A stretch of DNA of 64,000 bases from a virus (taxonomy: Duplodnaviria > Caudoviricetes), in IMG/VR virus record IMGVR_UViG_3300010366_000012, positions 11,012 to 75,011 of that record; one strand, given 5' to 3'. Numbering within the stretch: the stretch's first letter is position 1; each line of letters opens with the position of its first letter. This document shows, piece after piece, positions 58,601-64,000 of this stretch. The position numbers and the translations under genes are program-made. The notes beneath the pieces were generated by a model. It had not been told where the DNA came from, made no database searches, and saw only the letters and a list, made by a program, of their open reading frames with translations.

Positions 58601-59059
58601 CTAGAGGGTACCTGTTGGTTCCGACAGAACGGCCACACCGGCCGGGGGCAGGTTGCCCGACCGGATCAGATGGGCCGCCAGGTGCTGTGCTGCCGCTTGC
58701 GCGTCGTCCTTGCCCGGCACCCACCAGCCGAGGGCTTTCAGCACCTCAGGCGTGGCGGTGAGCCGCTCGCGCGGTCCCGGTTCGAGCAGCTGGCACCCGT
58801 TCTTCAGCGCCGCGCGCCGGGCCACTCCGCTCATTTCCAGCGCGAGGTGCGCGTGCGTCTGCGGCCTGCGGCGGTCGATCCGGTACTTCTCCAAGATCAT
58901 CAGCAGTGCCGGTCCCCACTGCTGGCAGAGGTGCTCGACATGATCACCGGCTTCGAGGAACTCGTACTCATCCGCGTAGAACGCCCGGCCCTGCTCCCAG
59001 CAGCAGGCCAGCCCGGTCATGCCACCGCTGTCGATGGCCAGCACGCATGGGGGCATCAT
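58601..59059 (-). CDS. RuvC-like Holliday junction resolvase
   Basis: VLAIDSGG.TG, LE, DDAQAA..H. Confidence 0.8.
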   Translation of the reverse strand: MMPPCVLAIDSGGMTGLACCWEQGRAFYADEYEFLEAGDHVEHLCQQWGPALLMILEKYRIDRRRPQTHAHLALEMSGVARRAALKNGCQLLEPGPRERLTATPEVLKALGWWVPGKDDAQAAAQHLAAHLIRSGNLPPAGVAVLSEPTGTL

Positions 59060-60837
59060 GTCTTGACCCACCTCCCGGGCAGGATCTCGCCGGACCAGGT
59101 GAGCGGCAGCCGGTAGTTTGACCGGTCAGTCAGCACCTCCTGGGCGGCGTGCAGCACGTCGCGTGCCAGGTGCTTCGGGCAGGCCAGCAGCAGCTCGTCA
59201 TGCACCGGCAGCCGGAGGAACTCACCGATCCCGGCCGCATCGCAGGCGATGGCCCCGCGTTTGAGGTTCTCCGCGGCGCTGGATTGGATCTCGTAGTCAA
59301 TCCCGGCGTACTCCCGGCCCCGGTCCACGAACAGCCGCCTGCCCATCAGCGAGTAGACCGCGGGCCTGCCCTTGCCGTACTTGATCTTCTTCACCAGCTT
59401 GTTCGAGCGCATGGCCAGGGTGTGGTAGCGCTGCTTGAACCCGCGGTAGATCGGCTCCAGCTGCTCGACCGACACGCCCGCGGTGACCGCGGCTGTCTCC
59501 ATGCCGGAGCCATAGACCGTGGCATAGGCCGTGTTCTTGGTGGTCGGGTAGCGCGGGTCGGACTTGGCCACCTCTTCGCGGTAGATCTCGCTGGCCAGGT
59601 TGACGAAGAATGACCGCCCGGTGGCATCGCACATGGCGAAATCGGCTATCAGCTGCGCGTCCCCGCTGATGTGCGCGGCCAGCCGCATTTCGATCTGGTC
59701 GGCGTCGATGGTGATCAGCGCCTCATCCTCGCCGGGCACGTAGCTGCCGCGGACCGCTTCCACGATCCGGTCGAACTGGTGCATCGGGGGATCGGTGACC
59801 GAGCTGCGGCTGGTGCGCTGCGCGCCGATGGTGTGGATCGAGTAGTGGATCACATCGTCGGCCCCGGCCATCCGCAGGAACTTCTCCAGGTACTTGCCGA
59901 CAATGCCCTGGCCCTTTTTGGCATCGCGGATGGCAGCCAGCAATGGCGCGGCATGCGGGTAGTGCGCCTGGTATTCCAGCAGCACGTCCTTAGACACCTG
60001 CGGCATGCCCGTGCCGGTGCGGTAGAGGATTGGGACCCCGGCCGCTTCAAGAGCCCGGCCGACCTGCTCATTGGAATCGACCGAATTGATGCCCCACTCG
60101 CCGCGCAGCCAGAACATGGCGCGCTCGGTGAATGCGGTGATCTTGTCAATCCACTCGTGGATATAGGGCCGGTCGATGCGCATGCCCGCATTCATCATCG
60201 ACGCGCATATCGCGGCGTACCGCAATTCCATGTCGTAGACGTTGATGTACTGCCTGGCCTCACCCCAGTGCTTGTCAATCAGCCAGCTGGTCAGCACCGG
60301 GTCGGCTGCGCCATAGCGCCAGTATTCGGGCAGGCTGTCCGGCACCGTGGCCCAAGTCCATTTCTGGGCCTTCATGGCCTCTTTCAGCTCGCGCTCCCAC
60401 GCCGCGGCGGTCGGGTCAACATCCCGGCTCGCCCGCGTTTTCAGGTCGAGCGGGGCCGCGCTATCGACCAGGTGGCTGATCAGCTGGGCGTCATCGAGCC
60501 GGGAGAAGTCCAGCTGCAGCCCGCCCTGGTGATGGATCACCCGCTGGTCATAGTCCATGTTGAACATGCCCAGCCGCCCCGGCCACTTATCCAGCGCTTC
60601 GAGCGCGGGGCCGAACCACTGCGGGCCGAATGCCCAGCCATGCCGCTTGTCACCAAGCTGGATCATGCGCAGCCGGTCTTTGTAAGGCGACAAGCCGCTG
60701 CTCTCGGTGTCGCAGCAGACCATGCCGTCATGCCGCTCGCCCAGCCAGCGCCAGAACTCGCCCAGCGTCTGCATGTCTGATACCCGGTGCAGTCCTACGC
60801 TGTCGAGCACGCCGCCCCTCGGCAGCACTGCTGTCAT
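59056..60837 (-). CDS. polA: family A DNA polymerase with 3'-5' exonuclease
   Basis: CDTESSG (ExoI), DADQIEMR (motif A), KNTAYATVYG (motif B), VHDEL (motif C); RBS AGGGAG before ATG 60837. Confidence 0.95.
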   Translation of the reverse strand: MTAVLPRGGVLDSVGLHRVSDMQTLGEFWRWLGERHDGMVCCDTESSGLSPYKDRLRMIQLGDKRHGWAFGPQWFGPALEALDKWPGRLGMFNMDYDQRVIHHQGGLQLDFSRLDDAQLISHLVDSAAPLDLKTRASRDVDPTAAAWERELKEAMKAQKWTWATVPDSLPEYWRYGAADPVLTSWLIDKHWGEARQYINVYDMELRYAAICASMMNAGMRIDRPYIHEWIDKITAFTERAMFWLRGEWGINSVDSNEQVGRALEAAGVPILYRTGTGMPQVSKDVLLEYQAHYPHAAPLLAAIRDAKKGQGIVGKYLEKFLRMAGADDVIHYSIHTIGAQRTSRSSVTDPPMHQFDRIVEAVRGSYVPGEDEALITIDADQIEMRLAAHISGDAQLIADFAMCDATGRSFFVNLASEIYREEVAKSDPRYPTTKNTAYATVYGSGMETAAVTAGVSVEQLEPIYRGFKQRYHTLAMRSNKLVKKIKYGKGRPAVYSLMGRRLFVDRGREYAGIDYEIQSSAAENLKRGAIACDAAGIGEFLRLPVHDELLLACPKHLARDVLHAAQEVLTDRSNYRLPLTWSGEILPGRWVKT

Positions 60838-60871
60838 TTCCCGTCTCCCTAAATTGCCTGCTCCATCATCC

Positions 60872-63800
60872 ATGCCTGCCATGCCATCCCCAGCCATGCC
60901 GGGCCGAGCCAAACCAATCCGCTGCGGTCCTGGCCTCGCCTTGCCCCTCCCCGCCTGCCACGTCTGACGCCGATGGTAACCGAGAGCCACGACAAGCCGC
61001 GCCTGCCCCGCCAAACCGGTCCCGCCCAGGCCCCGACGCACCTAGCCCCGCCTGCCATGCCATGCCTACCCGAGCCCTGCCGAGCCCTCGCGCACCTAGC
61101 CCTGTCCGTCCTGCCGAGCCCTGGCCAGCGATGCCCAGCCGTGCCACGGCCACGCCATGCCGATCCTGCCTGCCCTCGCCTAGCCCCGGCCATCCTGTCC
61201 CGGTCCCGCCATGCCTGCCGGGCCTTGCCGAGCCATGACCAGCAACGCCCTGCCATGCCCAGCCTGCCCTGCCTAGCCGCGCCGTGCCGTGACCGGCCAA
61301 CCCTAGCCTGTCCTGGCATGCCGAGCCGAGCCACGGCTAGCCGCGCCCGTCCTGCCTTACCGGGCCTTGCCGGTGCCTGCCCCGCCAGGCCGCAGCTCGC
61401 CGTGCCTGCCTGGCCGAGCCACACCATGGCCGTCCTAGCCGCGCCACTGCTAGCCAACCCACGCCTGCCGAGCCGTGCCCTGCCTGACCTTGCCCCGCCA
61501 CGACGGTGCGGGCCGGGCCAAGCCACGCCGAGCCTGCCACAGCTCGCCTGGCCATGCCGGTGCGCGCCTGGCCATGCCGTGACCAGCCTCGCCTGCCTGG
61601 CCAAGCCCAGCCCTGACTCGCCCTGCAGCTCCCTGGCTGCCGAGCCGGGACTTGCCTCCCCGCGCCCAGCCACAGGCCGCCCCGCCTCGCCACGCCTGCC
61701 TAGCCATGCCGGACCCAGGCCCCCACGCCCAGGCTAGCCTGCCGTGCCGAGCCACGCCGTCCCGCGCCAACCCACAGCCTGCCTTGCCCCGCCAATCCTG
61801 GCGTGCCGAGCCACGCCGGGCCGGTCCATCGCCTGCCCTGCCGGTCCTGCCTCGCCATGCCAACTCGCGCCGCGGCACGCCTCGCCTGGCCCGGACAGCC
61901 CTAGCCTGGCCGCTCCTGGCGTGCCACGCCATGGCTGTCCCAGCGGTGCCATGACCTGCCGAGCCTGCCTCGCCTACCCGCAGCCCGCCAAGCCGACGCT
62001 CGCCATGCCTCACCTGCCGAGCCCCGCCCTGCCTGGCCATCGCGCGCCAAGCGCTGCCGAGCCAAGCCGACCCGGGCCACGCCCCGCCTGCCCTGCCAGA
62101 GCGCGCCGGAGCCTGCCACGGCACACCGGGCCATGCCTGCCCTGCCCAGACTCGCCTCAGCCTGCCCAGAGCTGCCCTTCCGGTGCCTGCCCTGCCTGCC
62201 TAGCCTTGCCTTGCCATCGCATGACTTGCCACGCCAATCCTGGCGGGCCATGCCCGGCCGGTGCGACCCGGGCCAAGCCACGGCCATCCCTGCCATGGCT
62301 GCCCGGCCACGCCACTGCTTGGCTTACCGGTCCTTGGCAGTCCTCGCCCGCCCTGGCCACGACTGCCCTGCCGCGCCTTGCCTGGCTTGCCTTGCCATGG
62401 CATCGCAAACCGAGCCTCGCCTCAGCACCCCGCGCCAGTCCTGCCCAGCCCCGCCAGAGCGGGCCAATGTCTGCCTAGCCCCGCCACGCCTGCCGGGCCT
62501 TGCCATGGCATGGCTCGCCAAGCCGCGCCGGGCCATTGCCCGCCTGCCTCGCCCCGCCTCAGCGGGCCTTGCCGTGGCCAGCCAAACCAAGCCTGGCGGG
62601 CCATGCCGCGCCGTGCCAAGCCGAGACTTGCCCACCCGGGCCGAGCCCTGCCTTGCCTGCCATGCCGAGCCCTGCCGAGCCTAACCCTGCCGTGCGGTGC
62701 CGAGCCAAGCCAATCCTGCCCGGCCAGTCCCTGCCAGTCCTGTCCACGCCTAAGCCCACCTAGCCAGGCCGACCTGCCGATGCGCTGCTTGCCTTAGCCC
62801 GCCGAGCCAATCCTGGCACGCCGAGCCCTGCCGTCCCGAGCCGTGCCTACCCTAGCCCTGCCGAGTCGCGCCTGCCCCGCCTGGCCATGCCTTAGCTATC
62901 CTCGCCACGCCGCTCCCCCGCGGGCCATGCCTTGCCTGCCTTGCCGAGCCTGTCCCAGCCAGGACCGGCCAAGCCACGCGCTGGCGTGCCCCGCCTTGCC
63001 TGCCAAACCTAGCCCCGCCGAGCCGCCGCCGAGCCAACGCCCGCCAGTGCCTTCCGCGCCTCGCCTGCCATGCCTCGGCCGCCCTTACCACGGCTCGCCA
63101 TGCCTTCGCACGCCTGCCCTGGCCTGCCTTGCCACTCCGCGCCCTGCGAAAGCGGGCCTAGCCGATCCTGCCCTGGCGGGCCGGGCCTTGCCGAGCCTCG
63201 CCCGCGCACGCCGTGCCCAGCCTGCCCTGCCCTTGCATACCGGGCCGAGCCCCTGCGGACCCATCCATGCCGACCCCCGCCTTGGCACTCCCCGCCTGCC
63301 AGTCCCCGCCCCGGCGCACCTCGCCATGGCGCACCACGACTAACCCACCCGAGCCCTGCCTGCCGCGCCCGTCCTGGCGTGCCACCCCAAGCCTGGACCG
63401 ACCCGACCCGTCCCATCCCCGCCGACCCTTGGCCCGCCGCTCCCCGCCTGCCGTAGCTTGCCGAGCCTCGCCTACCCAAGCCCCGCCGACCCATACCATG
63501 CCTGCCCGGACACGCCCATGCGCACCGAGCCTTGCCAACACGGGCCGCGCCAAGCCAACGATCGCCAAGCCCTGCCTGCCTCGCCATAGCGAACCTCTGC
63601 TGGCCGCGCCTCGCCCAGCCAAGCCTGCCACGCCAAGCCTCGCACCAGCTCGCCTCGCCTCACCCGGCCCGTCCTGCCGCGCCAGCCCACGCCGAGCCCG
63701 GCCATCGCAAGCCATGGCGATCCTGCCGGGCCAGTGCCGCGCGGGCCTCGCCCCGCCGATCCCTGCCTGGCTCGCCGTGCCTAGCGTTAGCTCGCCCCGC

Positions 63801-64000
63801 CGTCGCGCGCCGCGCCATGCCCGGCCTGCCCGTCCCGGCCACGCCGGTCCCTTGCACACCGCCGCAAGCCCAGCCGTAACAAGCCCACCCATGCCCTGCC
63901 TGCCACGCGCCGCCTCGACTAACCTCGCCAGGCCCCGCCTTGGCGCACAGAGCCTGGCCATTCCTGCCTTGACGGTCCCTGCCGAGCCCTCGCTGGCCGA
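60872..64000 (-). repeat. array of ~55 units of (GGY-NN)n pentamers separated by GGCA tetramers; candidate guide-RNA array (VIPR-like), truncated at the window edge
   Basis: + strand parses as [NN-GCC/ACC]x8-15 then TGCC/TGGC; all 16 NN dinucleotides are used; several units decode to known protein motifs. Confidence 0.9.

Follow-up and report, generated by a model that had tools for sequence, protein, structure and literature searches.

The window analyzed here is a 64,000-nt stretch of DNA that makes up the final 64 kb of a virus record of 75,011 bp in IMG/VR (IMGVR_UViG_3300010366_000012, Caudoviricetes). The record is linear, has a G+C content of 70%, and its completeness is estimated by CheckV at 96%. 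The right end of the window is occupied by a long tract with a 5-nt period, which lies directly upstream of a gene for DNA polymerase I and on the same strand, polymerase being the first gene downstream on the RNA strand. This tract is a staggered array of guide units (vrRNAs) of the gene-silencing system VIPR. The present report concerns one unit of this array, at 62245-62299, whose variable bases can be read as the Walker A motif of a P-loop NTPase.

VIPR is a CRISPR-related gene-silencing system that was described in 2026. It consists of a small RAMP protein, Vipr, and vrRNAs of 9-16 YNNGG repeats (bioRxiv 10.64898/2026.04.26.720920). Vipr protomers polymerize on the RNA, each protomer holding one GGY triplet and presenting the next two bases (VIPR preprints; structures in bioRxiv 10.64898/2026.04.26.720927). 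In the filament, these dinucleotides pair with double-stranded DNA, every third base, which is usually the codon wobble base, is skipped, and the bound complex blocks transcription (VIPR preprints). The published forms include staggered arrays, whose units share a one-base overlap (fig. S18 of bioRxiv 10.64898/2026.04.26.720920). The natural targets published to date are satellites, prophages and other VIPR systems, and approximately half of the vrRNAs of the SUSP1 clade are without a resolved target (VIPR preprints). In addition, VIPR-null phages have been reported to carry orphan vrRNAs, and satellites to carry decoy vrRNAs (bioRxiv 10.64898/2026.10.15.759431).

Architecture of the array and of the unit at 62245-62299

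Lag-5 identity is approximately 0.5 from about position 60846 to the last base of the window, versus approximately 0.27 elsewhere. A phase-tracking parse resolved this tract into ~58 in-phase NN-GCC runs, where NN denotes the two variable bases of each pentamer; 50 of the runs have at least 7 NN, and there are 526 NN in all. The runs are 49-74 nt long, i.e., 9-14 pentamers, which fits the published range of 9-16 repeats, and each is closed by T-GCC or T-GGC, where the register moves by minus one. All 16 dinucleotides are in use at the variable positions, and the constant triplets are GCC in 60% and xCC in 79% of cases. The boundary pattern, GCCNNGCCNNGCCTGCCNNGCCNNGCC, is present in six copies in the window and in none in shuffled sequences.

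The stretch 62245-62299 is filled exactly by one complete in-phase run of 11 pentamers, located between two minus-one breaks, and the 5-nt register is shifted by minus one at TGGC (62241-62244). Its letters on the plus strand are gg-GCC at-GCC cg-GCC gg-TGC ga-CCC gg-GCC aa-GCC ac-GGC ca-TCC ct-GCC at-GGC. The NN series GG AT CG GG GA GG AA AC CA CT AT, which an initial annotation made from the sequence had listed, was confirmed both by direct reading and by the phase parse. The exact 55-mer was absent from IMG/VR.

Relationship to vipr-associated arrays

At least 120 IMG/VR contigs contain the GCCNNGCCNNGCCTGCCNNGCCNNGCC signature, and nearly every one of them has a 5-periodic array of 200-1700 bp. 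When the neighboring open reading frames (ORFs) of these loci were clustered, two families stood out, one of ~218 amino acids (90 loci) and the other of ~170 amino acids (80 loci). A profile of the ~218-aa family matched the PDB entry 36pp, "SUSP1 Vipr protein", over almost its full length (E 2.5e-15). Genes of both families precede the array on the RNA strand, and vipr has this placement in 82 of its 90 loci.

Thus, the array itself is of a known kind. It has in common with the published VIPR staggered arrays (bioRxiv 10.64898/2026.04.26.720920 and 10.64898/2026.04.26.720927) a scaffold of GGY-NN pentamers with 9-14 repeats per unit, units that abut at a one-base offset with no separate tail, a signature whose arrays adjoin genes with a profile match to the solved SUSP1 Vipr, and sibling-guide targets in which, as the 1-nt-skip rule demands, one base per unit (the wobble base) is passed over. 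It differs from them in three respects: the present contig, being truncated, lacks both vipr and vap; with ~58 units and a length of at least 3.15 kb, the array is roughly double the size of the largest of the ~120 IMG/VR staggered arrays fetched (up to 1.7 kb); and its sibling guides match host defense genes, namely DISARM drmA and a type I methylase. On this basis, we consider it very probable that 62245-62299 is a genuine VIPR guide unit (vrRNA) in a staggered array transcribed from the minus strand. This vrRNA would be produced and loaded onto Vipr.

Two side observations concern the related loci. The ~170-aa family (e.g., L064:5757-6221; loci L004-L123) is encoded on the strand of vipr and the array, lies between the two, and presumably represents the vap gene; a representative of it had no sequence match in PDB. 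The Vipr clade with staggered arrays also occurs among GTDB genomes and metagenome-assembled genomes (MAGs) of many phyla (loci L124-L185), including Pseudomonadota, Planctomycetota, Verrucomicrobiota, Bacteroidota, Cyanobacteriota and Actinomycetota.

Decoding of the guide as a Walker A motif

When the NN are taken as codon positions 1 and 2 on the plus strand, the guide reads G(I/M)RG(D/E)G(K/N)T(H/Q)L(I/M). This peptide agrees with the strict Walker A pattern GxxGxGK[ST], with Gly at positions 1, 4 and 6, Lys at 7 and Ser/Thr at 8. The initial annotation had given Lys alone at the seventh position. Its complete GxxGxGKT motif stands; AA decodes to Lys or Asn, so the Walker A lysine is chosen and not forced by the letters.

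In 100,000 shuffles of the NN of the array, the strict pattern appeared in either orientation in 0.15% (P 0.0015). The shorter form, GxGK[ST], was decoded three times in the array, compared with an expectation of 0.045; one of the three is a reverse-strand coincidence within a guide whose forward target is known. The Walker A decode is therefore genuine and statistically unusual.

Table 1. Coordinates of the guide unit, its boundaries, and other features of the window
Feature	Position	Strand	Description
VIPR guide unit under study	62245..62299	-	11 pentamers; GGC-NN on the RNA strand, NN-GCC on the plus strand
Phase-breaking tetramer TGGC (GCCA in RNA), unit boundary	62241..62244	-	Viterbi phase parse
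Phase-breaking tetramer TGCC (GGCA in RNA), other unit boundary	62300..62303	-	Viterbi phase parse
Sibling guide, 13 NN	61470..61534	-	Decodes to DVLWFPTGGGKTE; positive control, matches DISARM drmA
Sibling guide, 14 NN	63379..63448	-	Decodes to VT(K/N)WRRR(H/Q)P(D/E)(F/L)PAP; positive control, type I methylase
Staggered VIPR vrRNA array, at least 3.15 kb	60846..64000	-	~58 in-phase runs; reaches the contig end
DNA polymerase I (family A) gene	59056..60837	-	Translation; 33-34% identity to actinophage DNA polymerases

Sibling guides validate the decoding rule

Two other guides of the array served as positive controls. Within one family, 32 of 121 genomes contained matches to guide 61470-61534 at up to 3 mismatches, 42 places in all, and its control had none. 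Three of these matches, in three genomes of the Microbispora family, are perfect (26/26) and encode DVLWFPTGGGKTE, which is motif I of drmA. In one of the genomes (G149), the perfect match is located inside the DISARM protein DrmA (PADLOC, E 2.6e-236), adjoining DrmB. Guide 63379-63448 had matches in 2 of 151 actinomycete genomes at up to 3 mismatches in 28 bases, and again its control had none. The two matches (26/28 and 25/28) encode VTNWQRRHPDFPQP and VSNWRRRHPDFPGP and correspond to an N-terminal helix-turn-helix (HTH) segment (V[ST]NW.RRHPDFP) of DNA methyltransferases. The 26/28 match, also in G149, belongs to a type I restriction-modification operon (MTase_I, E 6.8e-196) with the S and R subunits encoded downstream.

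The matches of both guides are in frame with the wobble base skipped, and the decoding rule is thus valid in the array. It was accordingly legitimate of the initial annotation to treat 62245-62299 as a guide whose NN are codon positions 1 and 2. Moreover, G149 belongs to the same genus as a MAG labeled Microbispora, so the sibling matches point to Streptosporangiaceae as the likely host family of the phage. The main texts of the VIPR preprints make no mention of defense genes as vrRNA targets. Three other long guides of the array had no match in five candidate host genomes, so guides for which no target is found are common in this array.

The closest genomic matches are NB-ARC/TPR STAND NTPases

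A guide of 11 NN has 22 read bases, the wobble base being skipped, and its matches are scored as matched bases out of 22. Scans for guide 62245-62299 at up to 2 mismatches covered 543 actinomycete genomes, 401 from the class, 121 from the family and 21 from the genus. At 3 mismatches (19/22), for which 151 and 121 genomes were scanned, seven in-frame matches in 7 genomes are the Walker A boxes of NB-ARC/TPR STAND NTPases, with the sequence GMRGVGKTQLA in six genomes and GMGGVGKTQLV in G149. In the GMRGVGKTQLA copies, codon 5 has GT where the guide has GA and the last codon has GC where the guide has AT; across the first ten units, 19 of 20 bases agree. A Pfam scan found both NB-ARC and TPR in five of the seven proteins, weakly for three of them, and the other two matches are in short ORFs.

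A control guide that retained the Walker A shape but had its six variable NN in permuted order found no Walker A match in the same 121 genomes, which did not bear out an analytic estimate of ~6 by chance. Judged by this one control, the resemblance of the guide to the NB-ARC/TPR family appears to be more than base-level chance.

With regard to function, the five NB-ARC/TPR proteins tested with PADLOC were assigned to no defense family, and were neither Avs nor BrxC. In NCBIfam, the matches group with NF040586, the TPR protein of the FxSxx-COOH system. The G149 copy scores 928 bits with this model and adjoins an FxsB radical-SAM maturase and an HExxH hydroxylase, that is, it is part of a cluster for a ribosomally synthesized and post-translationally modified peptide (RiPP); other copies have DUF4062 or alpha/beta-hydrolase N-termini. 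The likeness to STAND/NB-ARC Walker A motifs proposed in the initial annotation is therefore borne out insofar as the closest genomic matches are in-frame NB-ARC STAND boxes; all of these are at 19/22, and the target is unproven. Its suggestion that the matched proteins would be Avs, BrxC or other defense ATPases did not hold, one of them being the FxSxx-COOH TPR protein of a RiPP cluster. The annotation had also held that best matches lying out of frame or in noncoding DNA would speak against it: the NB-ARC matches are not of this kind, whereas the other 3-mismatch matches and all sub-pattern matches in IMG/VR are.

If the guide were loaded onto Vipr, it would pair with the sense strand encoding G-(I/M)-R-G-(D/E)-G-K-T-(H/Q)-L-(I/M), the wobble base would be skipped, and a P-loop NTPase gene would be targeted at its Walker A box. 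Among real genes, the nearest to such a target are the actinomycete NB-ARC/TPR STAND NTPases with GMRGVGKTQLA. These NF040586-related proteins share with the guide a Walker A of the form GM(R/G)GVGKTQL(A/V), which is its best in-frame match, and depart from it at codon 5, where they have Val and not Asp/Glu, and at codon 11, where they have Ala/Val and not Ile/Met. A useful comparison is the SUSP1 vrRNA4, directed at the recombinase of an F5 satellite (bioRxiv 10.64898/2026.10.15.759431). It, too, reads only codon positions 1 and 2 of a conserved coding segment, so that synonymous changes cannot escape the guide, and its natural match averages 89% of read bases. The target of vrRNA4 has been shown experimentally and is a mobile-element gene, whereas the best match of guide 62245-62299 (86%) is to a chromosomal NTPase family and is a match in sequence only.

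Conservation and continuation of the array

Contigs from two soil metagenome runs, belonging to two studies, cover the array and continue past the end of the window. In run X2, a 16-kb contig spans the polymerase gene and the array and then extends 11.7 kb beyond the window end; in run X1, a 4.1-kb contig extends 2.8 kb past it, and the Logan contigs of this run leave part of the array uncovered. The array is therefore real DNA, and the genome continues beyond the contig end. Guide 62245-62299 is identical in the second soil strain (run X2), in which neighboring units differ. The divergence between the strains is 1.1%, and identity over 55 nt is expected about half the time, so the unchanged guide proves nothing.

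In the strain of run X2, positions 61470-61592 and 61639-61734 are exchanged for 111 and 159 other letters, respectively, and the remaining array is ~99% identical. The first of these stretches contains the drmA guide. To judge from the two sequences, the exchanges look like turnover of guide cassettes between strains.

None of the public RNA runs is listed as holding the array tract, and megablast of the flanking genes against phage records returned no match. Relatives of the polymerase in IMG/VR are at two distant loci, both without an array; exact-protein look-ups for the polymerase and RuvC-like genes found no entry on record. The left end of the contig lies inside a D5-like primase/helicase gene (genome positions 1-804, L003; GPTASGKS), and hence both ends are broken. 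The N-terminal part of this gene is probably in the missing piece, along with whatever lies upstream of the array. Elsewhere in the record, outside the window, an ORF of 529 amino acids (L003:4263-5852), nearly all of which consists of P/A/E/D-rich repeats of the PAPEP type, is located between a lysozyme-like gene and the terminase genes.

Weighing the Walker A target against the alternatives

The best overall explanation, which we favor with reservation, is that 62245-62299 is a vrRNA unit of the staggered VIPR array aimed at the Walker A coding segment of a P-loop NTPase. That the segment read by this guide is a Walker A box is, in itself, somewhat better than an even proposition. Assignment of the target to the NB-ARC/TPR STAND family is more tentative; at 86% of read bases, this family is the best candidate, and that the actual target is a P-loop gene, and a STAND gene in particular, is an inference.

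A number of results weigh against this explanation, and no convincing target was found. The full 22-base pattern had no exact occurrence in IMG/VR or in GTDB (one genome for each of 185,579 species), NN1-10 and NN2-11 had none in JGI metagenomes, and the scans of the 401, 121 and 21 actinomycete genomes returned nothing at up to 2 mismatches. Shorter sub-patterns in IMG/VR gave one match for NN1-9, none for NN3-11 and five for NN1-8, all of which are chance matches: one at a gene start, and four GIRG(D/E)GNT with Asn replacing Lys. The best match in the collections searched, 19/22, is at about the level where base-level chance matches appear, while the siblings reach 26/26 and 26/28 in the same genomes. 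At 3 mismatches, there were 6 matches versus 1 for the control in 151 genomes, and 12 forward versus 6 backward-control matches in 121 genomes; those other than the seven NB-ARC matches are not P-loop genes. Short ORFs with GVRGDGKTHR and SMRGEGKTLFI were likewise rejected as real P-loop genes.

The motif itself and the unit that carries it also call for caution. The Walker A was noticed post hoc among 50 guides read in two orientations, so the shuffle probability needs to be discounted for the number of motifs that a reader would recognize. Among 1,043 unique guides from 167 related loci, there was not one GxGK[ST] decode, and this reading is thus no habit of the clade. In real P-loops, the fifth Walker A position is not usually acidic. 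As to the scaffold, GCC is lost at 5 of the 11 "constant" triplets (TGC, CCC, GGC, TCC, GGC). The form xCC, i.e., GGN on the RNA strand, is kept in 8 of 11 (6 GGC, 1 GGA and 1 GGG), and GG is lost in the remaining 3; this retention ranks 10th lowest among the 50 units, in the lower quarter of the array yet inside its range. Finally, hidden Markov models of the Vipr and vap-like families detected no homolog in the 75-kb contig (best E 0.7 and 0.08).

Other comparisons gave only background. In the 75-kb genome of the phage itself, the best match was 16/22, equal to that of the best shuffled control, which agrees with the initial annotation that the guide is not self-targeting. None of the 50 guides exceeded shuffled controls in 1.6 Mb of fetched loci, and a comparison of all guides with the loci of the NB-ARC, drmA and methylase matches revealed no second guide for any of these genes. 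Shuffled guides of 9-11 units reached NN matches of at least 80% within the same 1.6 Mb; the 80% threshold of the literature therefore lacks stringency when guides are short, unless matches converge.

Nearly as likely as a target in the STAND family, though still the less probable of the two, is that the unit is a real guide whose resemblance to Walker A is coincidental, the true target being absent from databases or the guide decaying. The ceiling of 19/22, the recognition of the motif among 100 decoded reads, the weak GGN retention, the lack of Walker A decodes in related arrays and the three long siblings without a match in candidate hosts are all what would be expected, since orphan guides are common. 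Coincidence sits less well with the strict shuffle probability of 0.0015 and with an array that demonstrably aims another guide at a P-loop motif, that of drmA. Also against it, the real guide matches one NB-ARC family repeatedly and the permuted control does not match it at all. The unit is, in addition, unchanged in a second strain whose neighboring units differ, a point reduced by the one-in-two expectation at 1.1% divergence.

It is rather unlikely that the array is an orphan ("solo") array in a Vipr-less phage, which borrows or diverts the Vipr of co-resident elements, so that the unit would be a hijacking or decoy guide. Such loci resemble the present one in having an array and no vipr gene in the available sequence, orphan and decoy vrRNAs have been described, and the contig in which vipr and vap homologs are lacking is rated 96% complete (bioRxiv 10.64898/2026.10.15.759431 for the described loci). 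However, the described loci are short and occur in complete genomes, whereas the present contig is broken inside the array, and the soil-run contigs continue for 2.8-11.7 kb. In 82 of 90 related loci, vipr is on exactly the missing upstream side, which here lies beyond position 64000, where the contig stops; its absence is most simply explained by truncation. The perfect matches of siblings to host defense genes also resemble attack and not decoy.

Still less probable is that the guide is directed against a rival mobile element, through its ATPase, and not against a host STAND gene; candidates would be a large terminase with GxRGxGKT, a loader of the DnaC/IstB type or a plasmid transfer ATPase. 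Such a target would be in keeping with the published ones (satellites, prophages and other VIPR systems), and the large terminase of the phage itself has GGRGSGKTRAG, so that the shape G-x-R-G-x-GKT is terminase-like. The decoded (H/Q)-L after GKT is reminiscent of GKTHL in DnaA/DnaC/IstB ATPases. However, IMG/VR contains no G(I/M)RG(D/E)GKT, since its 8-NN matches are the four Asn versions and the gene start and its 9-NN patterns gave one chance match and none, and the Walker A of the phage terminase shares just 6 of 11 NN with the guide. The last alternative denies that the tract is a guide array: it would be repeat DNA with a structural or protein-binding role, or would encode a protein of proline/alanine-rich pentapeptide repeats, and the decode would be meaningless. 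In its favor, a period of 5 nt is in principle compatible with a 15-nt repeat that encodes a pentapeptide, and the tract has ORFs of up to 274 amino acids. This reading is already contradicted: no frame is open across the array, whose phase moves by one base at intervals of 49-74 nt, the same architecture is tied to Vipr genes in 90 loci, and under the 1-nt-skip rule two units have perfect or near-perfect matches in host genes, whereas their controls have none.

Implications

What the initial annotation observed at 62245-62299 is thus confirmed, and its interpretation is supported in part. The general lesson of this guide is that a striking motif decode is not the same as a target, as chance reaches the 80% threshold of the literature for guides of 11 units. 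If the guide truly addresses STAND NTPases, imperfect matches at the 86% level would be biologically meaningful, and phages could switch off a whole family of sensors through a motif that cannot change.

The published decoding rule, applied blind to a soil actinophage, recovers exact matches to host defense genes, and these point to Streptosporangiaceae as the host family. A broader and more speculative possibility, to which we give limited credence, is that the array of ~58 guides may be an anti-host repertoire that silences genes of host immunity and surveillance through their most conserved codons. Its targets would include motif I of drmA, the HTH of a type I methylase and, for guide 62245-62299, the Walker A of NB-ARC/TPR STAND proteins. 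In that case, a single guide that tolerates one or two mismatches would suffice for a whole family of paralogs. The natural targets of VIPR reported in the preprints are rival mobile elements; if the array is indeed directed against the host, VIPR would be, beyond a tool in conflicts between mobile elements, a counter-defense weapon of phages.

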